The notes below the pieces were generated by a model. It had not been told where the DNA came from, searched no databases, and saw only the letters and a program-made list of their open reading frames with translations. Positions 2,231 to 52,690 of a stretch of DNA of 64,000 nt are shown piece by piece. Position numbers and translations under genes: made by a program. Source of the stretch: a virus; IMG/VR virus record IMGVR_UViG_3300041956_000313, positions 1 to 64,000 of that record; one strand, 5' to 3'. Position 1 is the stretch's first letter; every line of letters starts with the position of its first letter.

Positions 2231-2927
2231 CCGCTTCGTTTGGCGACGGCGGATGATTGAATACGGGAGGGCGTACGCAGTGTTGGCAGATGGGCATGTA
2301 TCTAGCAAAGCGGAAGCCGCGTACAAGCGGCATTTCCACAAGTGCCCTATCTTGTGGGAGGGTAGTCTCGACGGCATCAAAGAGCACAATTGGCAGATTC
2401 TTTACATCGGGTCAGAGAAAGACTTTGGTGTAAACATTCCGTCGATGCGTGAGAGCACTCCGAGACCGCAGAAGTACTTCGAGCAGCAACAAATCTGGCC
2501 GAGGGGGTGGGTAGAACGACGCAAGTTCGATTTGGTAGAAGCTATTCAGCGCGCGCGCTCGGGCATGCTGCCGCGCTACAGACACAAGAGGGCAAACAAT
2601 GGGCATCAAGTTGCGACGCCGGAGGCGTCCGCTCAAATCGCTGTGGCCGGGAGTGGCCGAGGGTCACGCGAGAAAGCAGGTTTACAAGCATCTGTGGCGG
2701 ATGCACGGGAGGGAGACGTACGACGATCTAATGCAGGAGGCTTTTCTGGTCTACGCCCGCGTCCACGCACGGTACGCGACGAAAGCAACAAACCCGGCGT
2801 GGTTGATGTCGCTCTATCGCGAAAGTCTGCATCATCACTTGATCGATCTGGCGCGCCGGAGCGTGGTTCGAGCACGCTCCGAGCTCGTGACCGACGAGGT
2901 CGATATCTCGACGACGGACACAAGTGA
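2214..2927 (+). CDS. hypothetical protein; 3' part overlaps the sigma-like gene out of frame
   Basis: ATG at 2214 overlaps the primase end; the first ~125 aa fill an otherwise empty gap. Confidence 0.4.
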   Translation: MARVSDRFVWRRRMIEYGRAYAVLADGHVSSKAEAAYKRHFHKCPILWEGSLDGIKEHNWQILYIGSEKDFGVNIPSMRESTPRPQKYFEQQQIWPRGWVERRKFDLVEAIQRARSGMLPRYRHKRANNGHQVATPEASAQIAVAGSGRGSREKAGLQASVADAREGDVRRSNAGGFSGLRPRPRTVRDESNKPGVVDVALSRKSASSLDRSGAPERGSSTLRARDRRGRYLDDGHK

Positions 2928-3162
2928 ACCGGTCGACGTTTATGATCATGCGTTGGAGGCAATCGAGCGAGCACCTGATGAAATTCGGTCCGTGCTGCTC
3001 GTATTGCTCAAGGCGCCTGATGAGCTTCTGGAGGAGATACATCGGTGTGCGTGTCGAAGTGTTGAGCGCGCGTCGCGGATCATGTGCGCGCTCACGGGGC
3101 AGCCGCAAAGTCAGGACGTGTGGGAAAAGGCACGTGAGTATTTGAGGAGTAGTCTGCAGTGA
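2599..3162 (+). CDS. RNA polymerase sigma-70/ECF-like factor (region 2)
   Basis: ETYDDLMQEAFLVY...WLMSLYR..HHLIDLARR resembles sigma region 2; EAIERAPDEIRSVL resembles the start of region 4. Confidence 0.6.
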   Translation: MGIKLRRRRRPLKSLWPGVAEGHARKQVYKHLWRMHGRETYDDLMQEAFLVYARVHARYATKATNPAWLMSLYRESLHHHLIDLARRSVVRARSELVTDEVDISTTDTSEPVDVYDHALEAIERAPDEIRSVLLVLLKAPDELLEEIHRCACRSVERASRIMCALTGQPQSQDVWEKAREYLRSSLQ

Positions 3163-3178
3163 ATCGAGAGCATGACAC

Positions 3179-3703
3179 GTGTCCAATCTGCAATTGCAAG
3201 AACTGTCGAGGGCACCGACCGTGATCACAGTACGCAAACACATCGTCACCGAGACCGCGCACCGTCTTCTTGACTACGTCGGCAAGTGTGCGCATGTGCA
3301 TGGGCACAGTTACAAGTGGGAAGTGGAGCTGGGAGGGCATGAGCAGGACATGCCTCACAACGGCATCTTGATCGACTTCAAAGAGCTGAAGGCACTGCTG
3401 CAGAAGTACGTGCACGACGTGTATGACCACGCGCTCGTGCTGCGTAAAGATGATCCGCTGATTCAGAGCGCCGTGGCGTATCAAGCACTGGTCACTGGCG
3501 TGAGTGCTGATACAGCTCGCGTGGTTATTCATTCATTCAACCCGACGGCCGAGAATCTCGCAACGTTCGTTGGGCAGAGGTTTGAACGTGCCCTTGTGGG
3601 CAGGGTCCCTTTCGTGCGACTCGTGTCGTTCACGGTATGGGAGACAGAAAACAGTTTCGCACGGTATGTCCCGGAGGCAGTCAGACCCGAAACGTATAGA
3701 TAA
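3179..3703 (+). CDS. queD: 6-carboxy-5,6,7,8-tetrahydropterin synthase
   Basis: ETAHRL..GKCAHVHGHSY (catalytic Cys + Zn-binding His), IDFKELK, YDHA, NPTAENLA, VWET. Confidence 0.92.
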   Translation: MSNLQLQELSRAPTVITVRKHIVTETAHRLLDYVGKCAHVHGHSYKWEVELGGHEQDMPHNGILIDFKELKALLQKYVHDVYDHALVLRKDDPLIQSAVAYQALVTGVSADTARVVIHSFNPTAENLATFVGQRFERALVGRVPFVRLVSFTVWETENSFARYVPEAVRPETYR

Positions 3704-3750
3704 GTCGATTTTCCACAAACCAGTTTTTCCTTTTCAATGACGGAGTGACA

Positions 3751-4779
3751 ATGGCAACAATTCATAAGACTGAGAAAGAGATCGTCAAGGCCCTCGGCAC
3801 CGGCTTCAAGAAGCAGGGCGCGAAGGAGCCGCGGGCGAAGTATCTCGTGCGGCTCGCTGAGGCGCTGTCGAATATCGATGAGGACGACTACAACAGTCTT
3901 TCCACTGAAGCGAAGGACTGGTACGACGCGTGCGTGGCCGCGGCCGAGAAGAAGAAGGAAGCACCGGACTTTGACGATGTGAAGCCCTCTGCCAAAGACA
4001 AGAGCGGCGCGGGCAAGAAGGCGAAGGGCAAGAAGGCCGACGAGGACGACGAGGACGACGACTCGGACTCGGATGATGAGGATGACGAAGACGATGCCGA
4101 CGACTCTGACGACGAAGACGACGACTCGGACTCGGACGATTCTGATGATGAAGACGATGCCGACGAGGACGACGACTCGGACTCGGATGATGAGGATGAC
4201 GAAGACGATGCCGACGACTCTGACGACGAAGACGACGACTCGGACGCCGATGATGAGGACTCTGACGACGAAGACGACGACGACGCCGATAGCGACGAGG
4301 ACGATGATGACGCTGAGTCTCCGGACGAGGACAAGGACGACGGGGACGGTGCCGACGTCGCGAGCGTGCTGAAACGACTGAAAGTCGGCGACAAGGTGAA
4401 GGTGAAGACTGACGAGGCCGTCATCAAGGGCAAGGTCGTCAAGGCGATGCCGCGCGCGGTCAACGTCAAGGGACTCAAGGACGGCACTGTCGTCAAGCTG
4501 AAACTGGAAGACATCGAAGCCATCGAAGTTCTCTCGCAGGCAGAGCCCGCGGACGGTGAGAAGAACGAGAAGGCCGGCAAGGAGCGACTGTCCGGCACCG
4601 GTGAGAAGATTCGCGCGTGGCTCGTGAAGAACTACGCTATCACGGACGGCAAGACGGCGATGAAGAAGGCCGAGAAAGAGCTCGGCAACTTCAACCCGAA
4701 TACGTTCAAGCTGATGTTCTCCGAGTGTCACAAGTGGATTGATGCGTACAAGGCGCATCAGAAGGCGAAGGCGAAGTAA
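3751..4779 (+). CDS. protein with ~100-aa Asp/Glu tract, SH3/KOW-like domain and basic C-terminal domain
   Basis: GGAG RBS, strongly biased codons, followed by an intrinsic terminator; LKVGDKVKVKT..IKGKVVK beta-barrel pattern. Confidence 0.8.
   Translation: MATIHKTEKEIVKALGTGFKKQGAKEPRAKYLVRLAEALSNIDEDDYNSLSTEAKDWYDACVAAAEKKKEAPDFDDVKPSAKDKSGAGKKAKGKKADEDDEDDDSDSDDEDDEDDADDSDDEDDDSDSDDSDDEDDADEDDDSDSDDEDDEDDADDSDDEDDDSDADDEDSDDEDDDDADSDEDDDDAESPDEDKDDGDGADVASVLKRLKVGDKVKVKTDEAVIKGKVVKAMPRAVNVKGLKDGTVVKLKLEDIEAIEVLSQAEPADGEKNEKAGKERLSGTGEKIRAWLVKNYAITDGKTAMKKAEKELGNFNPNTFKLMFSECHKWIDAYKAHQKAKAK
4047..4245 (+). repeat. exact 85-bp direct repeat (4047-4131 and 4161-4245, period 114 bp) within the acidic tract
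   Basis: direct comparison of both copies. Confidence 0.9.
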
Positions 4780-4809
4780 CGACGACGCTCACCCGCGGCC
4801 TGATGCCGT

Positions 4810-4849
4810 AACCCCGCACGACTAACCCTCGTGCGGGGTTTTCTTTTTT
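4810..4849 (+). terminator. intrinsic terminator
   Basis: AACCCCGCACGA-loop-TCGTGCGGGGTT followed by TTCTTTTTT. Confidence 0.85.
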
Positions 4850-4863
4850 CGGAGGAAAGAGAA

Positions 4864-5436: not shown

Positions 5437-5469
5437 AGACTTACCACGCCTGATCGGAGTGTTACAGGT

Positions 5470-6573
5470 ATGCTGCTGAGGGAACGTCTGCGATCGGCTG
5501 AACCAGAGCCCGAGATAAGTTTTAATGAGGCACTAGATTCCGGTGCCTTTACTTTGTTCACGAAGTATTTCGTGGAGCGGCCGGACAAGACTTACAAGAA
5601 CGGAGCTCGTGCTACACCGTCTTTGCGCAGTGATCCGAAGAAGGTGGAAGAGTTCTACCAGAGCCCACGGTTCATGAAATACATGCTCGAATATATGAAC
5701 TTCTTGCACGTGCACGGAGACATGTTTGACTTCTACGTCACCGTGGACGTTCTGAACAATGTGCGGCTGACGAAGCTAGCACTTGAGATGATGTTGGGAG
5801 AAGGTCTGCGGCCGATGCCGGTGTACCACTACGGTGAGCCGTTCTCAGTCTTCAAGGAATACGCCGACAAGCACGAGTATGTTGCGCTGGGTGGGAACTC
5901 GCCGGCTGATGCTCACTCGCTCGCAGCGTTCGCAAGTCCGGTGTTCAAGTATCTGTGTGGGCCGGCGATGAAGTTTGCACCGTCTGTGAAGATTCATGCG
6001 CTCGGCATGACGTCGGTGCCGTTCATGGCACACTTCCCGATCTACTCGTTTGACTCGACTTCGTGGGCGTATCAAGCGCGCACCGGGGCGATTCTTTTGC
6101 CTAGGCTAGATCATTTCGGCAAGCCGCGATGGCTAGACCGATGGTTTAACATTCCGATGACGGAACGCACTCGCAAAGCGCGCAATCATTGGCTGCACAC
6201 GTCGTCGACTGTGCGGCATCACGCGGAGGAATACTTCGAGTTGCACGGCTTCACGCGCTCGCAGCTTGCTGAGTCGTACACCGCGCGTGATCGATTCAAC
6301 ATGTTTTATTGGTTCAGCGTGCAGCGTGAGCTCAACGCGCATTATCGTGACCGCTGGGGGTACGACGGTGGGCGCGTATATCTCTCGGGCAATCCGACGA
6401 CGGGCGGTGACGAGCCTCATGTCTACTGTGAGACGATGATGAAGGCCGCGCGCCGCGCGAATATTCGAGACATCAACTATCTTGCTACGTTCTGGTACAA
6501 GAACGACTTGCGCGAGCTGATGGCAGTCAAGAACTGGTGGGACATCAAACTTGAAAAGAGGTCAAGACAATGA
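5470..6573 (+). CDS. dpdA: TGT-fold DNA 7-deazaguanine transglycosylase (DpdA-like)
   Basis: LDSGAFT, VDVL, PMPVYH, YVALGG, KIHALG and SFDSTSW motifs; directly follows folE and queD. Confidence 0.65.
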   Translation: MLLRERLRSAEPEPEISFNEALDSGAFTLFTKYFVERPDKTYKNGARATPSLRSDPKKVEEFYQSPRFMKYMLEYMNFLHVHGDMFDFYVTVDVLNNVRLTKLALEMMLGEGLRPMPVYHYGEPFSVFKEYADKHEYVALGGNSPADAHSLAAFASPVFKYLCGPAMKFAPSVKIHALGMTSVPFMAHFPIYSFDSTSWAYQARTGAILLPRLDHFGKPRWLDRWFNIPMTERTRKARNHWLHTSSTVRHHAEEYFELHGFTRSQLAESYTARDRFNMFYWFSVQRELNAHYRDRWGYDGGRVYLSGNPTTGGDEPHVYCETMMKAARRANIRDINYLATFWYKNDLRELMAVKNWWDIKLEKRSRQ

Positions 6574-7697
6574 AGATTGCGGCAACTGAGTTGCATGAGA
6601 CGCTGCGTGTAGCGATGCTGGGCACGGCGCAGAACGAAGCGATTGAGGCACTGACACATGTGTTCTTCACGGGCAGTGTCGTGTACGGATACGACGGCAG
6701 CGTGTATTGCGAGCACGTGCTGAAGTCGGACATCAAAGGCAGTGTGCGTGCGGAGACACTCTGGACTGTGGTCGATGCGCTAGCTGCACAGTCGAAGGGC
6801 GATGCTGATGTGATCGTCGAGGACAAAGAGCTGCGCGTCAGAATCGGACGCTCTTTCCTGCGCGCGCCGTTAAATCCGGCTGACACGTTCGAAGTGCCTG
6901 ACGTGAAGAAGACCGGGGTGGTCATCAAGGGCGCAGAGCAGGCACGTGACATGTGCACGGCGTTTCAACGTTGTGTGGCAGTCTCGGATGCGGTCGGGCA
7001 CTATGCGTATGCGCGTGGTGTAGTCGTGCATGTGTCCGGCTCGAACGTGCTCATGTATGGCACGGACTCGTCGAAACTCGCGCGATGTGTCGTGCAGTTG
7101 AAATCCGAGGACAAGCTCGGACTCGCGCCCATCATCGTGCCTTACCGTGCCGTGCAGATTATCCTGCAGCTCGGCGCGATCGTGGGTGGCGATGATCACT
7201 TCTCAATGCGGCTGAGGCTCAGTAAAGAGCAAGTCGTCTGTGAGGTGCTGCTGTCGGTAGACAAGGAGATTAGAGTAATCGCGCGCATGATCAGCCCGAC
7301 GATCTCACCAGACGAAGAGCTGCCGGACTTCGAAAGCACGATCAAGCAACACTTGCCGAAGCGTGAGGGTGTCGACCTCGACAAGGTGGCCGGAGACATT
7401 CACGACATTCTGTCCCGAGCTCGCAAGCTCATCGCGGCGGAGCTGCAGCGGTTTGTGAAAGTCACCGTGAAGGATGGCAAGACGACGTTCACGACGAACA
7501 CTGCACGCGGCGAGAAGTTGCGTGAGAGTGTTGATGCAGCTCTGCTCGTCGAGGGCACTGAGTGTTATGTCGACGTCGACGGCTTCCTGCAAGCACTTGA
7601 GCATGGGCACTCACTGCGGCTGACGTCTGAGCACGGTGCGACGTTCACGGGCAAGTCGTACACATATCTGATACCCACAGTGCCGAGATTGTCATGA
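6570..7697 (+). CDS. DNA polymerase sliding clamp, beta-subunit-like
   Basis: 375 aa, MKI..TEL start, YGTDSSKLA (cf. ATDGHRLA) and LPDFESTI (cf. FPDY..VI); clamp loader encoded nearby. Confidence 0.6.
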   Translation: MKIAATELHETLRVAMLGTAQNEAIEALTHVFFTGSVVYGYDGSVYCEHVLKSDIKGSVRAETLWTVVDALAAQSKGDADVIVEDKELRVRIGRSFLRAPLNPADTFEVPDVKKTGVVIKGAEQARDMCTAFQRCVAVSDAVGHYAYARGVVVHVSGSNVLMYGTDSSKLARCVVQLKSEDKLGLAPIIVPYRAVQIILQLGAIVGGDDHFSMRLRLSKEQVVCEVLLSVDKEIRVIARMISPTISPDEELPDFESTIKQHLPKREGVDLDKVAGDIHDILSRARKLIAAELQRFVKVTVKDGKTTFTTNTARGEKLRESVDAALLVEGTECYVDVDGFLQALEHGHSLRLTSEHGATFTGKSYTYLIPTVPRLS

Positions 7698-8230: not shown

Positions 8231-8343
8231 AATAGTTCACCTGTTTCACTCGATCGGAGACTTGCAGAAGGAGATTGCACGTCTCCGACGTGAGTACAGT
8301 CGCATGCTCGATCGGCTGATGACTTTTAGACGAGGTAAACGCG

Positions 8344-11095: not shown

Positions 11096-11097
11096 GA

Positions 11098-11901
11098 GTG
11101 GGCGAAGTCGTAAAGCTTAGGCCGCGGCCGCGCAAGGTCAAACTCAATCCGTATGTGATGGTTGCGATTGACTACGCGGGCATTGAAGCACGTGTGGCCG
11201 CATGGGCATCGAATGACGAGAACTTGAGCAACTCGTACTGGACCGGGTACGACATTCACGCGGCGTGGGCGAAGTGGATTCTGAAGCGCGAGCCGGACAA
11301 CGTGAAGAAGTTTCCGAACGACTACGGGCATGATGTCAGCGTGCCTGAGTGCTTCAAGCAGTACCGCAACTGGGTCAAGAACAAGACGGTCTTTCCGCTC
11401 ACGTTCGGCTCGTCTGTCAACTCTGTGCAGCGTGATCAGAAGTTGAAAGATCATGTCGCGAGGGAGTTGGGGCGCTCGTTCTGGAATCAGTTCAGCGGTG
11501 TCAAAGAGTGGCACAATGACATGGGCAGGTTCTATGAGAAGCACGGGTACGTTGAAACACTCTTCGGCTTCAGACGCGGCGGAGCGCTCAGCTGGAATCA
11601 GATTATCAACATGCCTATTCAGGGCACTGCCGGCGAGCTCGTGCTGCGAGCGGGTAACCGTCTGCGCAAATTCGGCTACCAATACAGCCTCAACGTTCAC
11701 GACGATCTTACGTTCATCTTGCCTACTAGACATGCACATCGGCAGATTCCGGAAATCTGCGAAATCATGTGTGAAGTGAAGTGGAAGTGGATCAACACGC
11801 CGCTTGTCGTCGAAGTGTCAACCGGACCGAACTGGGCGGATCTTGTCGAGGTGAAGAAGTACAGCAGTGTCGACTTCGGTCACACGAGGAAGGCCGCATG
11901 A
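11098..11901 (+). CDS. polA: family A DNA polymerase, C-terminal part (motifs A, B, C)
   Basis: motif A AIDYAGIEAR, DIH, motif B RNWVKNKTVFPLTFG, GYVETLFGFRR, NMPIQGTA, motif C LNVHDDL. Confidence 0.92.
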   Translation: MGEVVKLRPRPRKVKLNPYVMVAIDYAGIEARVAAWASNDENLSNSYWTGYDIHAAWAKWILKREPDNVKKFPNDYGHDVSVPECFKQYRNWVKNKTVFPLTFGSSVNSVQRDQKLKDHVARELGRSFWNQFSGVKEWHNDMGRFYEKHGYVETLFGFRRGGALSWNQIINMPIQGTAGELVLRAGNRLRKFGYQYSLNVHDDLTFILPTRHAHRQIPEICEIMCEVKWKWINTPLVVEVSTGPNWADLVEVKKYSSVDFGHTRKAA

Positions 11902-12949: not shown

Positions 12950-13405
12950 GTGAAAATCAAGAAGCGCACGCGTCAGGTTCAGGTTGATCAGGGTGCACAG
13001 GGCTGGTACGAGCAGATGAAAGAAGTGCTGCAGCCTGACGATGAGGTCGACAAAGCCGTGCGTGAGTTCGCGTTTCTTTATCACGAGGTGGCGGAGTCGA
13101 TTGCTAACGCGCGCAATCTGCGACGGGACTATAAGGACGAGTACGACGAAGTTCTCGGCCGGTCTCTCGTTGCGCATCTCGAAGAAAAGACCACCGTCGC
13201 ACTGGCGAAGGAAAAAGCGGAGCTCACGCCGGCAGTTCTCGAACTCAAGAAGAGGCTGCGTGCCGTTGATGCGGAGCTGGAACGACTTGAAGCACTCATG
13301 AAGTCGTTTGAGAAGAAGTCCTCTATGTTAAAGGCGGAGGTAGAGTTGATCGCAACATCCTATGCTCAGCGCGATCACATCAAACCGAAGACGAGAAGGT
13401 ACTAG
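12950..13405 (+). CDS. coiled-coil protein, possible UvsY-like recombination mediator
   Basis: helical 151 aa; LEALMKSFEKKSSML segment; position next to ssb/recA. Confidence 0.45.
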   Translation: MKIKKRTRQVQVDQGAQGWYEQMKEVLQPDDEVDKAVREFAFLYHEVAESIANARNLRRDYKDEYDEVLGRSLVAHLEEKTTVALAKEKAELTPAVLELKKRLRAVDAELERLEALMKSFEKKSSMLKAEVELIATSYAQRDHIKPKTRRY

Positions 13406-13407
13406 CA

Positions 13408-13572: not shown

Positions 13573-14751
13573 ATGGCATTTAGAAAAGGCAAGAAAACGC
13601 CCTTCAAGTATCGGGGCACGAACTCGAAGTTTATGACGAAGCACATAGCTTCGGGCGGACGTGACTACGATTCGATGTTCAAGATTGATGTCACGACGTT
13701 CAAGCCGCGCGACGCTGAGAACAAGATTCGTGTCGTACCACCGACGTCCGACGAGATGGATTACTGGGCATTGCCGATTCACGTGCATTACGGAGTCGGC
13801 GCCGATAACGCTTCGTATCTCTGTCCGCGCAAGCATGGTGGCAAGAAGTGTCCTATATGCGAGGACTACGAACGCGCGCGCAAGGCCGGCAAGGACGAAG
13901 AGGCAAAAGAGCTTCGGCCGAATCAGCGCTTTCTCACGTATCTTGTCGACCGCAAGGACGAGGAGAAGGGTATTCAGGTCTGGTCGATGCCGGGCAAGCT
14001 CGATGGCGAGCTCAGCAAACAGACTGTCGATCCGGAGACGCGCGAGATTTTGCAGATAGACAACCCGACGGCTGGCTACGATATTTACTTCACGAAGGAA
14101 GGTCAGGGTCTCAAGACGCAATACACGGGCTGCAAGCTCGCGCGCAAGACGAGTGACCTCGATGACGAGTCAGTCCTCGAGTTTGCGCAGAAGCATCCGC
14201 TGCCGGAAATCTTGCAGGTGTACTCGTACGAGCACATCCTGAAAGAGTACGAAGGCAGTAGCGGTCGGTCCGACGATGACGATGATGCGGATGAGGAAGA
14301 CGACGAGCGACCGCGCAAGAAGAAGCACAGTGATGACGAGGACCTCGATGATGACGTACCGTTCGAGGGAGACGATGATGATGACGATGAAGATGACGGT
14401 GAAGAGGGTGATGAAGAGGACGGTGAATCCGAAGGTCATGCGAGACGCTCTGCTAAGTCTCGCGGCCGAACTCTCAAAAAGCGGTCCCGCCGTGATGACA
14501 GTGGTGACGACTCCGACGACTCTGACAATGAATCTGAGGATGGCGACGACGAAGATGAAGACTCCGCGACGCAGGACGCGGCTTTCTTGCGGAAAGCGAA
14601 TCTCAGCACGCTGAAGAGTCTTGCGAAAGAGCACAACGTGAAGTGGGCGACACTGCGCGCGCAGGCCGAAGAGGAAGAGTGGGACGACACGAAACTCAAG
14701 ATCAGACTGCGGCGGAAGATCGCGGCCGCACTCGACATCGATCTGGAGTAA
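13573..14751 (+). CDS. T4 gp32-like single-stranded DNA-binding protein with acidic linker and extra C-terminal domain
   Basis: NKIRVVPP, HVHY, YLCP..KKCPICE Zn site, GYDIYFTKEGQGLKTQY, long D/E tract. Confidence 0.8.
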   Translation: MAFRKGKKTPFKYRGTNSKFMTKHIASGGRDYDSMFKIDVTTFKPRDAENKIRVVPPTSDEMDYWALPIHVHYGVGADNASYLCPRKHGGKKCPICEDYERARKAGKDEEAKELRPNQRFLTYLVDRKDEEKGIQVWSMPGKLDGELSKQTVDPETREILQIDNPTAGYDIYFTKEGQGLKTQYTGCKLARKTSDLDDESVLEFAQKHPLPEILQVYSYEHILKEYEGSSGRSDDDDDADEEDDERPRKKKHSDDEDLDDDVPFEGDDDDDDEDDGEEGDEEDGESEGHARRSAKSRGRTLKKRSRRDDSGDDSDDSDNESEDGDDEDEDSATQDAAFLRKANLSTLKSLAKEHNVKWATLRAQAEEEEWDDTKLKIRLRRKIAAALDIDLE

Positions 14752-14816: not shown

Positions 14817-15776
14817 ATGAAATTGGTCGCACGTCCGCGCAATGGGGTACAAGTCGCAGACTGGACAAGCTATTTGATCCGTCAGCGTGACATCACGTTT
14901 ACGCACACCGGGTGCACAGTGCTCGACTGTGCATTGGGTAGTGGGTGGGCAGGTGGGCGCATCATCAATGTTGTGGGTGACAAGTCGACGGGCAAGACAC
15001 TGCTTGCTATCGAAGCCACGGCGAACTTTGCGCGACGGCATCCGAAGGGACTCATCAAGTACAAAGAAGCAGAGTCCGCGTTCGACCACGAGTATGCAGC
15101 TATCATGGGACTGCCGCTTGACCGCGTGAAATTCGACGAGGAGTTTGACACGGTGGAAGAGCTCTTTGCGGATGTCTCTGCGTTTACTGCGCTGTGTGCA
15201 AAGAAGAAGCAGCCGGGTCTGTACGTGTGTGACTCGCTCGACGCGCTCACGGATAAAGCCGAAGCGAAGCGTGACATGGAAGAAGGCTCGTATGGTGCGA
15301 AGAAAGCAGCACTGCTTTCGCAGTTCTTCAGACGTTTGAAAACACGCATGAAGCTGGCTAACGTCACGCTGTTCATCATCAGCCAGACACGCGACAACAT
15401 CGGGGTCACGTTTGGTCGCAAGTGGACGCGCTCGGGTGGCAAGGCACTCGACTTCTACGCTTCGCAGATTGTCTACCTCGCTGAAGTCGAGAAGCTCAGG
15501 AAGACGATTCGTGGCATGACGCGCGTGATCGGCGTGAAGATCAAGGCGCACGTGCAGAAGAACAAGGTCGGTTTGCCGTTCCGTGAGGCAGTGTTCACGA
15601 TCAAATTCGGTTATGGCATCGATGACGTGGGTGCATCTGCTGAGTATCTCAAGCAAGCGAAGGTCCGCTACAGCGCTACTTTTGCTCCGTCGAAACTCTC
15701 TGATCTTGTGAGGAGCACATGGCACGACGTCGAAAAGTCTTTCCTTCCCAAAGCGCGGAAGTACGCCGACCTATAA
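14817..15776 (+). CDS. recA: RecA/UvsX recombinase
   Basis: TGCTVLDCALG.G..GRI, GDKSTGKT, CDSLDAL, ISQTRDNIG, SGGKALDFYAS, KNKVGLPFREA. Confidence 0.92.
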   Translation: MKLVARPRNGVQVADWTSYLIRQRDITFTHTGCTVLDCALGSGWAGGRIINVVGDKSTGKTLLAIEATANFARRHPKGLIKYKEAESAFDHEYAAIMGLPLDRVKFDEEFDTVEELFADVSAFTALCAKKKQPGLYVCDSLDALTDKAEAKRDMEEGSYGAKKAALLSQFFRRLKTRMKLANVTLFIISQTRDNIGVTFGRKWTRSGGKALDFYASQIVYLAEVEKLRKTIRGMTRVIGVKIKAHVQKNKVGLPFREAVFTIKFGYGIDDVGASAEYLKQAKVRYSATFAPSKLSDLVRSTWHDVEKSFLPKARKYADL

Positions 15777-22493: not shown

Positions 22494-22757
22494 GTGTGCG
22501 TATATCTGTGCATGTTCTACCAAATACTCAAATTGCGGTGTGACTCGCGTGTCACGAATCCAGTTGACGAGCACGACACTGTGCAGTGCTGTCATGAAGC
22601 GACGTTCAAGGGCAAAAGCTCTGAACCGGAATACGAAGCTATGCGTGCCGGCTGGCGTTGGGACTTGACGCGTCGATGTTGGTGTCCGAAGCATGCTCGT
22701 GCAGAGCTGCCGGAGACGTTCGTAAAACCGAAACTCAAGAGAAGGGAGAGAAGATGA
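22494..22757 (+). CDS. small Cys-rich hypothetical protein
   Basis: CDS..QCC..GW..WCPKH Zn-ribbon pattern; ATGA overlap with the next gene; start uncertain. Confidence 0.5.
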   Translation: MCVYLCMFYQILKLRCDSRVTNPVDEHDTVQCCHEATFKGKSSEPEYEAMRAGWRWDLTRRCWCPKHARAELPETFVKPKLKRRERR

Positions 22758-22966: not shown

Positions 22967-23277
22967 GTACACACGCGCAGAAGATGAAGAAACACCGGCT
23001 TGAGCGCGTCAAGCTCAAGGGTGAGATGGCCGTACGATTCCGCAAGCTGTATCGGCACAGAATCAGTGGGCTCATCGACATACACTTGCATGATGTTCGC
23101 GTCGAGCAGTTACCTACGTTGATCGAGAGCTTCGGGCAAGACGTGTATCTGCAAGGAATTCTCGATGGCATTCAGGTAGCGCAGAACAATCCGGATTTTG
23201 TGAAGGAGTTGATGAATGACACTCAAGAAGCGGCCACGCCGCGATCCGCAGAAGTCGACTGGGAAGGTTCAGGCTAG
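22963..23277 (+). CDS. hypothetical protein
   Basis: GTGA coupling with the upstream gene. Confidence 0.5.
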   Translation: MSTHAQKMKKHRLERVKLKGEMAVRFRKLYRHRISGLIDIHLHDVRVEQLPTLIESFGQDVYLQGILDGIQVAQNNPDFVKELMNDTQEAATPRSAEVDWEGSG

Positions 23278-24071: not shown

Positions 24072-24722
24072 ATGAAACTTAGAGAAAGGCCGAGAAACAT
24101 CCCAAGGCAGCGCGGCAAGCGCGGCCCCGACAAACGTCCGCGCAAACTGCGTAGCGAGCATCGTTACGACAGAGACACGACCCAGTCGGAAGCTTTCAAG
24201 TTAGAGGACTATTTGCTGCCGCCGTGCTCCGTCATCAGGACTGACCGCACGAAGAGAACTGCATGGATCGGTGAGGGTCAGAAAACTGAAACTCGCTATG
24301 ACGCTACGCCGACGATTGCCGCGAGCCGACAGCATCTCACGCCCATCATGATCGACAAGATTTACGAGATAGTGCTGCAGACTCACTCACTCGAATGTGC
24401 AGCCGGCATTCTCTGCATACCGACGTTTACCGTGCAGCGATGGATGCAAGAAGGCAAGAAGGTAGCTGAAGACATTGCATCAGGAAAACCGCACAGACGA
24501 CAGCACGTCTTGCAGTACGAGCTCTATATCCGGATCACGCAAGCTAGATTCGTGAAGCTCGCCGAGAAGCGTGCCCGGATTCTCCGCAACAAGAATGACA
24601 GCAGTGCTTTCCGCACGTTCAAAGTTCTCGAAGCTCTGGACACGGAAAACTTCGGTTTCAACAGAGGCAAGAGCACGACTGCAGCCGATGCATTGCCGCT
24701 GGCTGATGAGGCGTATATGTAA
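24072..24722 (+). CDS. HTH protein, putative terminase small subunit
   Basis: LTPIMIDKIYEIV..SLECAAGILCI..TVQRWMQEG followed by helices ending LE.LD.E.FG, the usual TerS-like layout. Confidence 0.5.
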   Translation: MKLRERPRNIPRQRGKRGPDKRPRKLRSEHRYDRDTTQSEAFKLEDYLLPPCSVIRTDRTKRTAWIGEGQKTETRYDATPTIAASRQHLTPIMIDKIYEIVLQTHSLECAAGILCIPTFTVQRWMQEGKKVAEDIASGKPHRRQHVLQYELYIRITQARFVKLAEKRARILRNKNDSSAFRTFKVLEALDTENFGFNRGKSTTAADALPLADEAYM

Positions 24723-37018: not shown

Positions 37019-37828
37019 ATGATTCACTATCACGGTGCCGACATCACGCCACAGGAAGTCGGTAGAGCAGCACTCAAAGGCAAGCACGTGCTGTTCAGTT
37101 TTCTGAGCCCGCGTGACATCAAGCACGTCACTGGACTCTGTCAGTCTTACGTGTTCGATTGCGGCGCCTACAACGCGTTCACGTCGGGCAAGCCGATCAC
37201 GGAGTGGGAGCCGTACTACGATTGGGTCGATGAGTGGCGGCATCATCCGGGCTTCGACTGGGCGGTGATTCCTGATGTCATTGACGGTGACGAGCGCGCG
37301 AACCGCAGGCTGTTAGACGAATGGTGCAAGCGGTTCGACGACGTGAATCGTGCTCCCTGGGCGAAGGCATACTCAATGGGTGTGCCGGTGTGGCATCCGC
37401 ACGAGTCGATGCACTATCTGCGGACGCTCGCAGCGAATTTCCGTACGGTTGCAATCGGTGGCAGCCGGCGCTTCCCACTCGGACGCAAAGCGTGGTGGCA
37501 CCGGATCGATGAAGCGTTTCGCACGCTGAGCCTCGAGGACGGCACGATGACGTGTCGTGTGCATGGCATGCGGATGCTCAACCCGAAATACGTGAGCCGC
37601 TTGCCGATGTCGTCGGCTGACTCGTCGAGTGCCGCTCGCAATGGCAACAACCGCGCACACGGGCGCGGCAGCTTTCATGCACCGACACTCACACGTGTGC
37701 GACAAATCATCGATCGACTAGAGGCGTATAACTCACCGGCACGCTATGTGCCTCAAGTAATCACGCACAACCATCTTTTCAGTGACGCCTATGTCTTACC
37801 CAAACTGCAAAAACGGCCGCGCAAGTAA
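37019..37828 (+). CDS. second TGT-fold transglycosylase-like protein (MIHYHG type)
   Basis: FDCGAY, IPDVIDG, VPVWH, VAIGGS, RVHGMR and SADSSS follow the same motif order as 5470-6573. Confidence 0.65.
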   Translation: MIHYHGADITPQEVGRAALKGKHVLFSFLSPRDIKHVTGLCQSYVFDCGAYNAFTSGKPITEWEPYYDWVDEWRHHPGFDWAVIPDVIDGDERANRRLLDEWCKRFDDVNRAPWAKAYSMGVPVWHPHESMHYLRTLAANFRTVAIGGSRRFPLGRKAWWHRIDEAFRTLSLEDGTMTCRVHGMRMLNPKYVSRLPMSSADSSSAARNGNNRAHGRGSFHAPTLTRVRQIIDRLEAYNSPARYVPQVITHNHLFSDAYVLPKLQKRPRK

Positions 37829-38061
37829 GTGTGGCATGCGTGACCCCGTCGGAGTCTTCGACGTGCAACGTGACGTGCTTCGAGCACTGAGCGGTGAGGA
37901 GATGGGCAGTGCTTTGCGCAAGGCATTGCACACACTTGCTACGGCGTATGCAAAGCGACTCAGCAAGGGTGACAGCTTTGTCGAAGGTTTCAAACATGGT
38001 CATTTGTTCGTCACGTTGCGCACGACGAGCAAATTTTACCCACGCAACAACAGGAGATTGT

Positions 38062-39339
38062 ATGTCCTCCCGCGACTCAACCCCCGTGCTCGCTAAGAAA
38101 GCTTGTCCGTTCTGTTCGTTAGGAACGTCAGCGCTCATCATTCAGAGCTCGAAAGAAATGCTGCCTGTGCCAGATGCTTGCGTTGTTGAGATGTGGGCAG
38201 TTATTTGCAGTGTGCACAAGGGAGGATGCGGCGCTTCAGGTGGGTACTATCTCAGTCCGAATGAAGCTGTGACGAAGTGGAACACACGTGTCGTCAAGTC
38301 GTGCGTGATGGTAGAGGCAGAGGCTGCTGCAATGGATGCGGCTGATGTGCAGCTCACGTCGCATGAGGCGGAGGTGACCCATGTCATAGTTGAGGGCAAG
38401 TTGTTTGTCCCTGCGCCGTTTCACGATGTGCCCACGCCTATGCTTTTGCAGTGTCCGGAGTGCAAGCAGCAACACATTGACGTGCCTGACGACTCGTGCA
38501 AGAACTGCGGCAATACATATCGAACGGCGTCACATCATGTGACAGTAGAGAATAGCGGTGCGTGTTGCGCTCATCCGGAGAAATGGGACAATCCGCCGCA
38601 CAAGACACACCGCTGCAAGTTCTGCGGTCACAAGTGGCGGCCATTTCCGTTTCCGTCTTTCGGCGTCACCGAGGAAGAAATCCGGAAGTTCTGGTCGCAG
38701 CTCAGTGACAAGGACTGGGACGAAGCTCTGTCGATGGCAAACGAGATGGTCAACTCGCCGGAGGCAAAGACCGCGGCGATAGTCGAGCTCGTGCAGTCGT
38801 CGGGTTTCAAGAAGATCGGCTTGCAGATGAATCTGTGGGCACGCTTCTTGCGCGAGCCCGCTGATCAAGTCGATCACATACGCCTTGCCTTCATCGACAC
38901 GAACGGCGCGCAATTCGGTGACAGCATTCCGTGGGACCAGTTCCTCAGCAGTGTCATGCAGCTCTGCGGAGTCGAGGCAGCACGAGCAGATTTGCTGATT
39001 ACTGCTTTCAAGAATGATTACCCGATCACGATCGAGATGGACCCAGGCGACAAGTACAAACTCGAAGCCGTGCCCCTCGCGGACATCGATGCAGAAGCAC
39101 GCGACCCTGTGCACGAGGAGAATGGCAAATGGTATTTTTGGGAAGAGACGTGGGCAGACAGGCAGGGACCGTTCGATACTGAGCTTCAAGCGCGCAACGC
39201 GTGTGAGCAGTATGCGCAAGCACTCGTGGGAGATGCGACACGAGGATGGCTAGAGACTTTGCAGAAGATCACGCGTGATGGATCACGCAGTGCTGGGCAG
39301 ATAGTTCCGATACGCAAGCCCTCTACACCGCAAGATTGA
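38062..39339 (+). CDS. multidomain protein with N-terminal Lar (restriction alleviation)-like Zn finger
   Basis: ACPFC..WAVIC..GCGASG..EAVTKWNTR; further CPEC, CKNC, CKFC. Confidence 0.6.
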   Translation: MSSRDSTPVLAKKACPFCSLGTSALIIQSSKEMLPVPDACVVEMWAVICSVHKGGCGASGGYYLSPNEAVTKWNTRVVKSCVMVEAEAAAMDAADVQLTSHEAEVTHVIVEGKLFVPAPFHDVPTPMLLQCPECKQQHIDVPDDSCKNCGNTYRTASHHVTVENSGACCAHPEKWDNPPHKTHRCKFCGHKWRPFPFPSFGVTEEEIRKFWSQLSDKDWDEALSMANEMVNSPEAKTAAIVELVQSSGFKKIGLQMNLWARFLREPADQVDHIRLAFIDTNGAQFGDSIPWDQFLSSVMQLCGVEAARADLLITAFKNDYPITIEMDPGDKYKLEAVPLADIDAEARDPVHEENGKWYFWEETWADRQGPFDTELQARNACEQYAQALVGDATRGWLETLQKITRDGSRSAGQIVPIRKPSTPQD

Positions 39340-43426: not shown

Positions 43427-43460
43427 ACGCGCGGCACTGAGCGCGTTATAAGAGGTCTCT

Positions 43461-44020: not shown

Positions 44021-44599
44021 ATGGCAGCACTGAATGGAGCCGCGACTACGCTCGCGATGCTCCGGTTTATCGCGAATCATTCCGGGCAGTACACGCGTGA
44101 CGAGATAGTCAAACACTATCAGCCGCAGATACGCCGCAAGAAAGCGCAGCACACGGTCATGAATCTGCTGACCACGCAGCTCGTTGCGCGTGGTGCAGCC
44201 GACCGTCTCATGCCCACGGCAAAAGGACGGCTGCAGCTTCAACCAAAGAAACGTGATGCACTCACGTCGTTCTCAGTCAAATCAGTAGAGCGCAGAGACA
44301 ACTGGCTAGCCGGTGATCTTGAGGGCAGCGTCTTTACACAGCCAGTGACGACACGTGTGCCGACGTTGCGCGAGCGGCCGCGCAAAGCGCCCATTGATCC
44401 GCTGCGCACGGCTCGAAGACTCTACTTCGAAGCTGACTTGGTCTATGCGCCGCGGCTCAAAGAATACCTCTGCAAAGTTCGCACGCGTTCGTCCGAGTTC
44501 GCACACGGTGAGCGCGTGCTGATGTTTGATTTGCAGCATGCAAAGAATCTTCATGCGTGGCTGGGCCGCGCAATACCTGTCATGGAGTCACGCAAATGA
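44021..44599 (+). CDS. winged-helix-like hypothetical protein
   Basis: MLRFIANHSGQYTRDEIVKH..TVMNL..LV..LMPTAKGR. Confidence 0.5.
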   Translation: MAALNGAATTLAMLRFIANHSGQYTRDEIVKHYQPQIRRKKAQHTVMNLLTTQLVARGAADRLMPTAKGRLQLQPKKRDALTSFSVKSVERRDNWLAGDLEGSVFTQPVTTRVPTLRERPRKAPIDPLRTARRLYFEADLVYAPRLKEYLCKVRTRSSEFAHGERVLMFDLQHAKNLHAWLGRAIPVMESRK

Positions 44600-45509: not shown

Positions 45510-45877
45510 AGAACAGAAAGAAGCTGCTAATCGTGCTGACGAAGCGCATCCTGTTTATTTTTGGGCTGCAGGTCTTGGGCGTTGTCAGTGCTGTCGGACT
45601 CTGGATCTTTGTCATGCTCATGTGGTTTGCAGGGTTCTTCGTGCTGCCGGTGGCGTTGATGCGCTCGACGTCAGACAAGGGCGAGATAGTACTGCCGACG
45701 TGGGCAAGGCATTGGGACGACACTGCGGACCTCGAGATCAGAGGCCGACCCGCGGCGCAGTTTGTGTGGCAGTACGACTTGGGGTGGCACATGGCGACGT
45801 TCTTGTGGCTGCAGTTCTACAATCCACTCGCTAACATGCGAGTTATGTATCGCCGCAAGGTCGGACTGCCGCAATGA
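45506..45877 (+). CDS. membrane protein
   Basis: long hydrophobic N-terminal region; coupled to terL. Confidence 0.55.
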   Translation: MKNRKKLLIVLTKRILFIFGLQVLGVVSAVGLWIFVMLMWFAGFFVLPVALMRSTSDKGEIVLPTWARHWDDTADLEIRGRPAAQFVWQYDLGWHMATFLWLQFYNPLANMRVMYRRKVGLPQ

Positions 45878-47268
45878 GCGCGATAGTCATGCCTTTACGA
45901 CGCCGGCCGCGTGTGCCGGTGCCGATGCTGGATCACAAGCAAGAGTTCTGGCGCAAAGAAGATCCGATACTCAATGACAAGGGCGAGGTCATCAAGGGTG
46001 GGTTTTGGGAGCCGCAACGCAACTGGTGGAGTCTGCCGAACTTCATAAAGTCGTTCGTCGCAGGCTATGGCAGCGGCAAGACGTTCATAGGTGCAAAGCG
46101 TGACATCGCCCAGTGTTTGCTGAATGCGCCTGCGCCACAGTTAGTCGTCAGCCCGTCCTACAAGATCGCAAAGCGCACAATCATTCCCGTGATTCGTGCT
46201 TTGTGTCAGGGCAAAGCGGTGCGTGACCCGACGTTCACGTGGAGTGAGCATCGCACTGACTTTGAATTCACTATCAAGCACGGTCCGCGAATCGGCACGA
46301 TCTGGATTGCATCCGGAGACGAGCCGGACAGCTTGAAGGGTCCGACAGTCGGCAGCGCTCACATCGACGAGCCCTTTGTGCAGGAGAAAGAAGTACTCGA
46401 CCAGTGCATAGCACGTGTGCGCGATCCGCGCGCAAAGCGCAAAGAGATTACTCTGACGGGCACGCCTGAGCAGCTCAACTGGGGGTATGACATCTGCGCA
46501 GGAGACGAGAAGGAGGACTATGACGTCGGTGTCGTGCACGCATCGACTCACTCGAACCGTGCTCTGGCTGATGATTACGCGAAGCGCATGGAGAGTGCTT
46601 ACACGGATCGTGCCACGCAGGCGTTCGTTGACGGACTGTTCGTCAATCTGTCCAAGGGCGTGGTGTACTACGGCTTTACAAATCTTAACGTAGTTCAGAT
46701 TCCTGACCCGGGCGGTGAGCTCTGTGTGGGCATGGACTTCAACGTCAACCCGATGGCGTGTTGTGTGTTTTGGGTTTACGGCAATCACATGCATGTCATT
46801 GCAGAGCACGAGTTCGACAACGCTGATACACCGTATGTCTGCCAAGTTCTGCACGAGAAGTACAGGTTTCTAGCCGGTCCGCGTCAGGGCGAGTGTCGCA
46901 TAAAGAATGTGTACCCCGATCCGGCTGGCAATCAGCGGCACACGAGCTCGCCCGGTGGAAAGACGGACTTCCACTACATTCAGGAAGCAGGCTTCATCGT
47001 GCAAGCACGACGTTCGCACCCTGCCGTGCGCGATCGTGAGAACGCAGTAAATGGCAAGCTCGGACCGATGATGGGAGAGCCCACACTGACGTTCGAGCCT
47101 TCGTGCAAACGTCTCGTCAAATACTGTCGAATCTACACGCACGAGAACAAAAACAAACCGCATGCAAAGGCAATGAGTCACCTGCTTGATAGTCTCGGGT
47201 ACCCTGTTGAATACTTGTTTCCAGTTGTTCGGCCGATTGTTGAAGTCCGAAACTTTCAAGGCGCGTGA
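45874..47268 (+). CDS. terL: terminase large subunit
   Basis: AGYGSGKT Walker A, HIDEP Walker B, TGTPE, GMDFNVNPM, YPDPAG, HLLDSLGY nuclease motifs. Confidence 0.93.
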   Translation: MSAIVMPLRRRPRVPVPMLDHKQEFWRKEDPILNDKGEVIKGGFWEPQRNWWSLPNFIKSFVAGYGSGKTFIGAKRDIAQCLLNAPAPQLVVSPSYKIAKRTIIPVIRALCQGKAVRDPTFTWSEHRTDFEFTIKHGPRIGTIWIASGDEPDSLKGPTVGSAHIDEPFVQEKEVLDQCIARVRDPRAKRKEITLTGTPEQLNWGYDICAGDEKEDYDVGVVHASTHSNRALADDYAKRMESAYTDRATQAFVDGLFVNLSKGVVYYGFTNLNVVQIPDPGGELCVGMDFNVNPMACCVFWVYGNHMHVIAEHEFDNADTPYVCQVLHEKYRFLAGPRQGECRIKNVYPDPAGNQRHTSSPGGKTDFHYIQEAGFIVQARRSHPAVRDRENAVNGKLGPMMGEPTLTFEPSCKRLVKYCRIYTHENKNKPHAKAMSHLLDSLGYPVEYLFPVVRPIVEVRNFQGA

Positions 47269-47278
47269 GGGGAAAAGC

Positions 47279-50628: not shown

Positions 50629-50631
50629 CAC

Positions 50632-50814
50632 TTGCACCCGGTTCCATTGTGACTAGAATCCGTTTCTGGTAAAGCGAACCTTCAGGGCGAATCCCTCCGC
50701 AGAGTGTGAGGGGTTGATAGCTGAGAAACTCTCGACAAGGCACCGGCAGAGTCGGTGCCCATCGGGGAAGGTGCAGCAGCAATCAATTCATCAACTCTGT
50801 GAGGGGATTCGTTC
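50632..50814 (+). promoter_or_regulatory. putative promoter and structured leader of the major capsid gene
   Basis: TTGCAC-N16-TAGAAT; 50688-50705 pairs with 50794-50811 covering the RBS. Confidence 0.6.
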
Positions 50815-51975
50815 ATGGCCAATAATCTTGCCGTGGCAGTGCCGAAGATTCTGGCACGTGGTCTGATGGCGCTACGCTCCGAAACTGTCATGCCCGCGCT
50901 CGTGAACCGGGACTATGGCAATGAGGCCGCACAGCGAGGCACCGTCATCACCATTCCGATTCCGTCTGCGGTTGCAGTCCGCGACGTCGTTCCAGGTGTT
51001 ACGCCGGTGGCTGCACCGGATCAGGGTCCGACGCAGGCACTCGTGCCGCTCGATCAGTGGAAAGAAGCTCCGTTCTATCTGAATGACAAGGAGCTTCAAG
51101 AGATCAACGCGAGCGCGACGTTCATTCCGATGGAAACATCGGAGGCGATCAAGTCGCTGGCGGAAGTGATCAATGCCTTCATTCTTTCGAAGTACAAGGG
51201 TGTCTACGGGTACGCCGGCACTGCTGGCACGACTCCGTTCAACGCGACGCCTGCCAACCTCGACATCAGCTCGGCCACGGCTCTGCGCAAGGTTCTCAAC
51301 AACCAGCGCGCGCCGAAGCGTCCGCGCTATGCCGTGCTGGACCCGGACGCCGAAGCCAACGCACTGAATCAGCGTGCGTTCCAGGACTACAGCTGGGGCA
51401 ACACGACTGACGTGATTCGCGATGGTGAGATGCGTGAGACGCGCATGGGCTTCGGCTGGTTCATGGATCAGCAGGTCCCGACGCACACGGCCGGTACGCT
51501 GACGGGCACGATCAACGTCGCGGCGAACGCGGCCGCGGGCGTGTCGTCCGTCACCGCTGCAACGGACGGTGCCGAAGCGATCGCGCTGAAGGAAGGCGAC
51601 ATCATCACTTTCAGCAATCACACGCAGACGTATGTGGTGACTGCTGATGTGACGGCGGGCGCCTCGGTTGCGTCGACGGCGATTCCGATTGCGCCGGTGC
51701 TGCAGGTGGCGGTGACGACTGCCGCGACGATTGCAGTGAAGGCGACGCACGTCGTGAATCTCGGCTTCCACCGCGATGCTTTCGCGTTCGCGTCGCGTCC
51801 TCTGCAGGACGTCAACGGTCTCGGCAACCTCATCCTGAGCGCGGCCGACCCCATAACTGGTCTGTCACTGCGGCTCGAAATCTCGCGCCAGCACAAGCAG
51901 ACTGCGTGGTCGTTCGACATTCTCTACGGTGCCGCACTCGTGCGTCGCGAGCTCGCAGCACGCCTCGCTGGCTAA
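50815..51975 (+). CDS. major capsid protein (P22 coat-like, with insertion domain)
   Basis: LVNRDY..G..ITIP, NLGFHRDAFAFASRPL, FDILYG...R.ELA.R; very biased codons. Confidence 0.9.
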   Translation: MANNLAVAVPKILARGLMALRSETVMPALVNRDYGNEAAQRGTVITIPIPSAVAVRDVVPGVTPVAAPDQGPTQALVPLDQWKEAPFYLNDKELQEINASATFIPMETSEAIKSLAEVINAFILSKYKGVYGYAGTAGTTPFNATPANLDISSATALRKVLNNQRAPKRPRYAVLDPDAEANALNQRAFQDYSWGNTTDVIRDGEMRETRMGFGWFMDQQVPTHTAGTLTGTINVAANAAAGVSSVTAATDGAEAIALKEGDIITFSNHTQTYVVTADVTAGASVASTAIPIAPVLQVAVTTAATIAVKATHVVNLGFHRDAFAFASRPLQDVNGLGNLILSAADPITGLSLRLEISRQHKQTAWSFDILYGAALVRRELAARLAG

Positions 51976-52066
51976 GGCCGCAAGTCCCTCGCAAACCCCC
52001 GCATTGGGTCGGCACGGATGCTGACCCTGTGCACTTCTGAAAGAAAAGTTTCTTGGAGGTAGTTTC

Positions 52067-52690
52067 ATGAGTGTCCAGACGCTAGTAGAACAACACAAGG
52101 CCATTCGCAAGTCAGGCGTGCCGCTTCACGATCAGTTCGCAGCGCTCAGCCAGAACGAGCGAATGGCATTCGCGCAAGCGCTCGGCCAGACGCTTAACAT
52201 TCCCGTCGGCCGAGAAGCAGAAGCGCAGCCCGAGAACGCGCAGACGCTGCATATCTTGCAGTACATGACGCGACAGCCTCCGCCGCTGAAGAACCTCGCA
52301 CTGCTGGGCGTGCATCGTACGCAGTGCGTGTGGGTGAAGAAGGCGAGCGGCAAGATCGTGGAAGTTCCGGTCGATGCTTTCGACCCGGCCGTGCACGAGC
52401 TGTCGAAGAAGCAGCCGATTGAGGCACGTGCCTATATCGGCAAGGTCAAGAAGAAGATCAAGGAGTATGAGGAACACAAGGCCGCGAACGAAGTGGACGA
52501 CGGTGACGAGGAGTTCGACGACGAGGTGGATGAGGGTGATTCCGAGATTCTCGACCGGGACGAGCCGGCCGACTCGGACATCTCGGATGAAGATGATGAG
52601 GACGCAGGTGGCGAGACTCCGCCGCACTCCGTCACGCGCAAGCCGAAGACTTCGAAGAAGTCAAAGTTGAAGGCGCGCGGCCGCAGGTAA
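52067..52690 (+). CDS. hypothetical virion-associated protein with acidic tract and basic tail
   Basis: GGAGG RBS; FDPAVHEL motif; follows the capsid gene. Confidence 0.7.
   Translation: MSVQTLVEQHKAIRKSGVPLHDQFAALSQNERMAFAQALGQTLNIPVGREAEAQPENAQTLHILQYMTRQPPPLKNLALLGVHRTQCVWVKKASGKIVEVPVDAFDPAVHELSKKQPIEARAYIGKVKKKIKEYEEHKAANEVDDGDEEFDDEVDEGDSEILDRDEPADSDISDEDDEDAGGETPPHSVTRKPKTSKKSKLKARGRR

Follow-up and report, generated by a model that had tools for sequence, protein, structure and literature searches.

Why would a recombinase, a polymerase fragment, two DNA-modifying transglycosylases, terminase proteins and several proteins of no recognizable family carry the same short, basic peptide at their ends or in their linkers? 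This question is raised by the virus record IMGVR_UViG_3300041956_000313 of IMG/VR, which has 92,726 bp (~93 kb), is rated complete by CheckV and belongs to an uncultured phage. Its first 64,000 nucleotides are referred to below as the window. A first-pass annotation, made from the sequence alone, had described a recurrent basic tag of the form [KT]-[LI]-x-x-R-(P)-R on about a dozen unrelated proteins and had proposed that it recruits them to one hub. We confirm that the tag is real, is far too frequent to be due to chance and is common to about 12 unrelated DNA-handling proteins (Table 1). We found no previous description of the motif in the searchable literature.

Enrichment of the motif at protein ends

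Gene calling on the whole record, using a self-trained codon model and scoring of ribosome-binding sites (RBSs), yielded 144-148 genes. The regular expression [KT][LI]..R.R occurs 14 times in the called proteins, as against 2.3 times in within-protein shuffles (0 of 2000 shuffles reach 14). Consistent with the proposed location at termini, 10 matches lie in the terminal 20 amino acids (0.56 expected) and 9 in the terminal 15 (0.26 expected; 0 of 3000 shuffles). The narrower core L..RPR is found 9 times in the proteins of the whole record and 0.55 times in shuffled proteins; 8 copies are terminal (0.13 expected), 7 are within the terminal 15 amino acids (0.06 expected), and no shuffle matched these counts.

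The first-pass annotation had named two outcomes that would count against its proposal, namely no terminal enrichment over the Arg-rich background of a GC-rich genome and loss of the tag from orthologues; neither applies, as shown here for the enrichment and below for the orthologues. When shuffling was confined to each terminal 20-residue window, such that local composition was matched, L..RPR was expected 0.21 times and observed 7 times (0 of 5000 shuffles). Basic termini alone are therefore an insufficient explanation, and a pure effect of composition was ruled out. The core is also rarer outside the gene calls, in other frames and regions, than in the coding frames of this GC-rich genome (15 in ~157,000 codons versus 9 in 28,200 codons).

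It is important to consider that the motif was defined after being seen, which favors the possibility that the copies have no common function. We enumerated 123,423 gapped patterns of three or four residues in the terminal windows and applied a Bonferroni correction. The two highest-ranking patterns were KL..R.R (8 proteins, 0.25 expected, P = 3e-10) and L..RPR (7 proteins, 0.16 expected, P = 5e-10). Both survive the correction, and this result, like the window-matched shuffles, argues against the lack of a common function.

Table 1. Copies of the basic motif and the proteins considered as its partners. Positions are those of the window, except for the two copies that lie beyond it. Abbreviations: HTH, helix-turn-helix; ORF, open reading frame; SSB, single-stranded DNA-binding protein.
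Feature	Position	Strand	Context
KLRERPR, canonical	24075..24095	+	residues 2-8 of TerS-like HTH protein 24072-24722
TLRERPR, canonical	44363..44383	+	internal linker, residues 115-121 of basic protein 44021-44599
KLQKRPR, then K and stop	37802..37822	+	C-terminus of DpdA2 (37019-37828), 8 residues after NHLF
KLVARPR	14820..14840	+	residues 2-8 of RecA/UvsX-like recombinase 14817-15776
KLRPRPR	11113..11133	+	residues 6-12 of C-fragment of split family A polymerase, 11098-11901
TLKKRPR	23219..23239	+	residues 2-8 of protein 23216-24001
PLRRRPR	45892..45912	+	residues 7-13 of large terminase TerL, 45874-47268
Canonical copy	83384-83404		same genome, beyond the window; C-terminus
Canonical copy	85582-85602		same genome, beyond the window; protein 85123
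LLRERLR, near-canonical	5473..5493	+	residues 2-8 of DpdA1 (5470-6573)
KLRRRRR, variant	2608..2628	+	residues 4-10 of weakly sigma-like protein 2599-3162
KIKKRTR, variant	12953..12973	+	residues 2-8 of protein 12950-13405
TLKKRSR, variant	14470..14490	+	basic island in acidic linker of gp32-like SSB
KLKARGR, variant	52664..52684	+	C-terminus of protein 52067-52690, gene after major capsid gene
KLEKRSR, weak variant	6547..6567	+	DpdA1 C-terminus; Arg codons are RBS of clamp gene
KLKRRER, weak variant	22731..22751	+	end of ORF 22494-22757; overlaps RBS of gene 22754
RLNPRAR	38073..38093	+	end of small ORF 37863-38096
gp32-like SSB	13573..14751	+	~90-residue acidic linker, protein net charge -34; candidate partner
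Acidic protein 3751	3751..4779	+	net charge -65, ~105-residue Asp/Glu/Ser tract; earlier candidate hub
Phage beta-clamp-like processivity factor	6570..7697	+	phrog_947; considered as hub

Every instance listed in the first-pass annotation was found where it had been placed, and most of them stand. Seven of the nine core copies are inside the window, in the PolA C-fragment, RecA, 23216, 24072, DpdA2, 44021 and TerL. The N-terminal copies begin straight after Met, and the others are preceded by Pro-x. In the weaker variants (sigma-like protein, 12950, SSB linker and 52067), Ser, Thr, Gly or Arg replaces the Pro. Two C-terminal variants, KLEKRSR and KLKRRER, are weak and doubtful, as they are spelled by the purine-rich RBS of the next gene with the rare codons AGA and AGG; in addition, ORF 22494-22757 is below the gene-calling threshold. 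These two would fit a set of copies without common function. We considered an RBS by-product as the general cause of the motif and accept it for these two cases alone.

All carriers of recognizable function act on DNA. The TerS-like assignment of protein 24072 combines a high-confidence lead in the atlas with weak BLAST matches to TerS genes that adjoin TerL in related phages; its ATG start is supported by an RBS, and a second RPRK is present at residues 22-25. The sigma-like protein has only a Sigma70_r2 match under the Pfam cut-off. Neither 23216-24001 nor 44021-44599 belongs to a family in Pfam or PHROG, and proteins 44021 and 85123 have a strong positive net charge. Protein 23216-24001 contains two similar Cys-x13/14-Cys-x5-His-x3-His repeats, which are possibly a new zinc-binding module.

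Selection on the peptide and location outside folds

The nine core copies are encoded in diverse ways: their Leu is specified by CTT, TTG, CTC, CTG or TTA, and each of the Arg positions draws on four codons. Of the 14 genomic occurrences of the DNA 9-mer CGGCCGCGC, only 3 are in tags. Given these divergent codons and a 9-mer that is mostly outside the tags, conservation resides in the peptide and selection acts on the protein. A DNA-level repeat, a promoter and a restriction-like site were ruled out by the differing codons and by the location of this GC-rich 9-mer. That the peptide has been kept in spite of divergent codons is also evidence for a common function.

Family matches place the tag outside the conserved core of the PolA C-fragment, RecA, the two DpdA paralogues and TerL, in agreement with the first-pass annotation. 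The Pfam matches to DNA_pol_A and RecA begin at residues 19 and 23, respectively, in both cases after the tag. Matches to phrog_887 extend up to residue 240 of 269 in DpdA2 and over residues 72-292 in DpdA1, and relatives of TerL align from residue 24-25 on, again after the tag. In an AlphaFold2 model of RecA (93 homologues, mean predicted local distance difference test score, pLDDT, of 88.7), residues 1-7 score below 50, i.e., the RecA tag is modeled as disordered. By these family matches and pLDDT values, the tag has the disordered location outside folded domains that is typical of short linear docking motifs.

Conservation in orthologues

Docking motifs of this kind are kept while their flanks vary. 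We found this behavior in the DpdA2 tails and RecA N-termini, and partly in the PolA C-fragment. An orthologue of RecA at 81% identity begins MKLRERPRN, which are the same nine residues that begin the TerS-like protein of our phage, and homologues at 66-67% identity retain Leu3 and the two Arg residues or a near variant. The Leu is the most stable position, persisting in RecA orthologues whose RPR has decayed. In the C-termini of DpdA2 orthologues (64, 56 and 48% identity), L-R-E-R-P-R is followed by one to four final residues, and the 7-8 linker residues before the motif change while the motif is kept. Such retention at 48-81% identity with changing flanks is difficult to reconcile with copies that have no common function.

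Because the RecA and DpdA2 orthologues carry it, we take L-R-E-R-P-R to be the canonical form. Glu is frequent inside the motif, and a conserved Leu together with a frequent Glu would be more in keeping with a pocket in a protein than with generic binding of polyanions. For the PolA C-fragment, the expectation of the first-pass annotation that orthologues keep the tag holds loosely: split orthologues at 77 and 76% identity begin MKLIERRRK and MLKSRKK, and the tag is absent from more distant split orthologues. Scans of metagenomes and viruses for the genomes of the nearest relatives gave nothing usable with RecA or its 81% orthologue as the query; with the 64% DpdA2 orthologue, they reached unrelated phages alone, none of which matched this RecA.

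The small ORF 37863-38096 directly follows DpdA2, and its end copies the DpdA2 tail (HGHLF, a spacer and Y-V-L-P-R-L-N-P-R-A-R) in different codons. It may encode a free-standing tail that acts as a competitor of DpdA2, or may be left over from an old, partial duplication. As a nearby copy, it illustrates that tails can duplicate, which would fit copies without a common function.

Tails in the wider phage group

We compared five related phages that share the replication module and whose TerL proteins have 45-57% identity to that of our phage. In all five, RecA and the TerS-like protein have basic N-tails. Within the N-termini of the 120 best RecA homologues, R[PV][RK][LIV] is present in 26 of 120 (1.4 in shuffles) and L..R.[RK] in 24 (4.4 in shuffles), counts that are not independent given that these homologues are related to each other. 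RecA and TerS-like tails from one genome are closer to each other than tails from different genomes are (the observed sum was reached by 15 of 720 permutations), and tail composition varies with genome GC content, being Lys-rich at 37% GC and Arg/Pro-rich at 70% GC. Judging from these comparisons, the strict tag looks like a sharpened and expanded version of an older RecA/TerS tail.

Two of the relatives have terminal peptides of their own. In one (G001, loci L087-L090), KRV[QR][LIV]R is found in 6 terminal positions versus 0.4 expected, although 2 of the 6 belong to conserved portions of the folds of TerL and a tail protein, so that an equivalent tag is only hinted at. In another (G005, loci L103-L107), R[PV][RK]L[KT] occurs 4 times versus 0.6 expected, with RecA and the TerS-like protein among its carriers. 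Many related TerL proteins (loci L005-L016 and L035) have an N-terminal FFE-x5-V-[DEK]-[RK]-P, ~11 residues before a conserved FWR. This peptide, with its [DEK]-[RK]-P end, differs from the tag and may itself mediate docking, e.g., of TerS.

A possible docking motif for a common partner

Sliding clamps and SSBs organize DNA metabolism by means of shared docking peptides. We infer, with a confidence that falls short of even odds, that the tag is a docking motif read by one common protein partner, for which the gp32-like SSB is the first candidate and the acidic protein 3751 the second. Under this explanation, selection would maintain the tag as a short linear motif, canonically (Met or Pro)-[K/T]-L-R-E-R-P-R-[K/R/N], displayed on flexible ends or linkers of the RecA-like protein, the PolA C-fragment, both DpdA proteins, TerL and the TerS-like protein, as well as on a number of basic proteins of no assigned function. 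Its invariant Leu would anchor it through a hydrophobic contact, and Arg-Pro-Arg would hold on to an acidic surface of the partner, which may be the SSB, with its long acidic linker, or protein 3751. Carriers would thereby be concentrated at sites of phage DNA replication, recombination, modification and packaging. The motif may have originated in the basic RecA/TerS N-tails of the phage group, been sharpened in this lineage and then been copied onto more proteins.

The SSB has a precedent in phage T4, whose gp32, an SSB with an acidic tail, assembles recombinase, helicases and polymerase on the DNA of the phage (PMC11551737); UvsX, UvsY, gp59 and Dda are recruited via its C-terminal region (A domain) (PMC11551737). 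Comparably, the gp32-like SSB of our phage has a long acidic linker that includes DDDVPF, which is similar to the DDDIPF tip of bacterial SSB. The linker also contains two tag-like basic islands, of which the second, RPRKKK, is upstream of TLKKRSR. An extra C-terminal helical domain of some 65 residues follows the linker; the SSBs of the relatives are without such a domain.

The LAST motif of T4 gp32 itself is (Lys/Arg)3(Ser/Thr)2. The tag does not conform to it: canonical tags have Pro at the place of Ser/Thr, and the nearest sequences are KKRSR in the SSB linker and KKRTR in protein 12950.

Protein 3751, which the first-pass annotation had suggested as one candidate hub, has a five-stranded small beta-barrel (of the SH3/Sm/Tudor kind) after its acidic tract, followed by three helices, and its gene is between QueD and FolE. 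Two homologues alone were found among 1.84 billion representative proteins, and none is encoded by the five related phages, even though their RecA and TerS-like proteins carry basic tails. We thus ruled out 3751 as the ancestral reader of the tail. It could still be a reader specific to this lineage.

Several observations weigh against a common protein partner. All carriers bind or act on DNA, which is equally well explained if the tag binds DNA directly. In T4, the polarity is reversed, with the peptide on gp32 and the pocket on the client (PMC11551737); likewise, T4 gp32 and bacterial SSB offer one shared peptide to a folded pocket in each client, whereas here the shared peptide is on the clients. 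RPR is not enriched in the five relatives, and the strict motif is known from a narrow lineage alone. The PolA C-fragment tag is labile and loosely conserved in the sequences compared. Finally, GC content partly accounts for the likeness of RecA and TerS tails within genomes. The part of the original proposal that stands is a functional, selected motif, while a single hub and a role in localization remain hypotheses.

The suggested localization signal is a resemblance in sequence only. The consensus of a classical monopartite nuclear localization signal (NLS), K-[K/R]-x-[K/R], is matched by [KR]-R-P-R-[KR] in 23216, DpdA2, 85123, the second site of 24072 and the SSB linker; the remaining core copies fit the NLS consensus less well. 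The comparison with a classical NLS or with import into the phage nucleus of chimalliviruses (PMC11087766) holds in that K-R-P-R-K fits the eukaryotic consensus and one label would be common to replication proteins. However, at 93 kb this is not a nucleus-forming jumbo phage, and an importin, shell or importer is not known here, with no search aimed at them having been made.

Alternative explanations

The main alternative, to which we assign a somewhat lower probability than to docking onto a protein, is that the tag is a nucleic-acid anchor. Its Arg-Pro-Arg would lie in the DNA minor groove and raise the affinity of the carriers for DNA, and no protein hub would be needed. Beyond the carriers that act on DNA, others resemble DNA binders, namely the HTH-like 24072 and the strongly positive 44021 and 85123, and DNA is an ever-present receptor. 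Basic tails whose sequence varies, as seen on RecA and TerS throughout the phage group, are compatible with an anchor of this type as well. Moreover, the preference for Arg over Lys is strict (18 occurrences of RPR versus 6.7 expected, and 11 of RPK/KPR versus 10.7), as is typical of narrow minor-groove readers. In these respects the tag is like the AT-hook (R-G-R-P), SPKK and the R-P-R arms of homeodomains and Hin, which are short Arg/Pro motifs on flexible ends. It is not an AT-hook as such, since Gly-Arg-Pro is found in 0 of 9 core copies and the core is Arg-Pro-Arg. Unlike all of these motifs, the tag has a conserved Leu and a frequent Glu, and in most carriers no HTH adjoins it. The best-kept residue being Leu, with Glu common, is not expected of an arm that binds in the groove. 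Many tails of the RecA family are without net positive charge (e.g., R-V-K-L followed by three Glu). In addition, the motif is uniform within the lineage and different between lineages, and generic binding needs neither.

A more doubtful possibility is that the tag is an address label by which a single, dedicated partner recognizes the carriers, with label and reader co-evolving. The partner could be a protein, or a condensate or compartment that the phage builds on SSB or 3751. Such a partner would unite the enzymes of recombination, replication, 7-deazaguanine modification and packaging in one factory. Co-evolution would give each lineage its own version of the label, and the joint change of RecA and TerS tails would be its trace.

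We consider it unlikely that the tag is a handle for an AAA+ unfoldase, protease or chaperone (ClpX, DnaK, or HslU with the HslV-like protein of the phage) that would jointly control the lifetime or folding of the carriers. Tags are at the very ends of proteins, at residues 2-8 or within 0-2 residues of the C-terminus, and the phage encodes a peptidase of the HslV family. ClpX has a basic C-terminal recognition class, and DnaK binds Leu-Pro-Arg-Pro peptides of proline-rich antimicrobial peptides; we presume a likeness of the tag to basic degrons and DnaK-binding peptides. However, beyond its basic character the tag matches no defined degron class, and nothing points to a joint turnover of recombinase, polymerase and terminase. 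The HslV-like gene (19744-20472, in the replication module) has a homologue in 0 of the 5 related phages, whose RecA and TerS carry tails.

It is rather improbable that the tag is the second half of a two-part tail for the sliding clamp, in which a hydrophobic motif would enter the clamp pocket and the tag would contact the clamp surface or the threaded DNA. Clamp-binding peptides (the bacterial QL[SD]LF, the PIP box of PCNA clients, and the C-terminal tails of T4 gp43, gp33 and gp55 on gp45) are likewise short, are on free ends or linkers outside the folds of many unrelated DNA enzymes and gather these enzymes at one platform, as the tag would. They are, however, hydrophobic and their reader is known, whereas the tag is basic with a single Leu, and no reader is known for it. 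The beta-clamp consensus (Gln with two or three hydrophobic residues, i.e., QL[SD]LF or QLxLxL) is not found in L-R-E-R-P-R, which contains one hydrophobic residue and lacks Gln, and motifs that fit it occur elsewhere in the same genome.

A two-part tail could explain the NHLF of DpdA2 and its repetition with a tag-like end in the neighboring ORF, and the phage has its own clamp and clamp loader. The PolA N-fragment begins MGFLFG (8344-8361), with KKRARK six residues later, and the full-length PolA proteins of relatives begin MLQSLFG, MGFFY or MNIGFF; MGFLFG is probably an N-terminal clamp-binding motif. Since DpdA2, the small ORF and the PolA N-fragment all have a clamp-like motif followed by a basic stretch, a two-part tail is conceivable in these proteins. 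At the position of NHLF, 13 of 120 homologues of DpdA2 end in Q..[LIVM]F-type motifs. In contrast, most carriers (RecA, TerL, the TerS-like protein, 23216 and 44021) lack a hydrophobic clamp motif in the vicinity of the tag, and clamp-like motifs exist without a tag, e.g., the KQLGLFE that ends helicase gene 35-709 and resembles a beta-clamp-binding motif. The pocket of the clamp is probably served by such hydrophobic motifs.

In view of the shuffles, the correction for multiple patterns, the codons and the orthologues presented above, the least probable and already disfavored explanation is that the copies have no common function and are by-products of basic ends, Lys-Leu after the start, in-frame RBSs and copying of terminal segments.

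If a common partner does read the tag, a basic and lineage-specific label would point to an undescribed organizing principle of a phage DNA factory. The label would link recombinase, polymerase, DNA-hypermodifying enzymes and terminase, and the nine-residue peptide could be used as bait. For uncultured phages, it would also provide a practical rule by which proteins of unknown function could be recognized as functionally linked. Even as a DNA-binding arm alone, the tag would be new, namely a short motif of defined consensus that anchors proteins to DNA.

Genome context and additional observations

The record has 56% GC, and nearly all of its genes are on the plus strand. Its left part is a replication and recombination module, which includes the preQ0 genes QueD and FolE, the two DpdA-type transglycosylases (phrog_887 matches), the beta-clamp-like factor with its clamp loader, the family A polymerase split over two genes, the gp32-like SSB, the RecA/UvsX-like recombinase, SbcCD and the HslV-like peptidase. 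No close cultured phage was found: the top TerL match has 45% identity and is from Vibrio siphophages, and there were no nucleotide matches. The first gene (35-709) and the last gene (91823-92725) both match one 515-residue helicase of related phages. As this gene spans the ends of the record, the record is circularly permuted.

The Q..[LIVM]F-type ends of the 13 DpdA2-family proteins (P0137, P0138 and P0174 are members of this family), of which QLDLF is an example, suggest that tethering to the sliding clamp is common among DNA 7-deazaguanine transglycosylases. We found no paper on such tethering in the literature.

Three adjacent proteins of the tail region of the same genome (66617-70165) begin MANQF. 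In the enumeration of terminal patterns, NQF was found in 4 proteins versus 0.21 expected.

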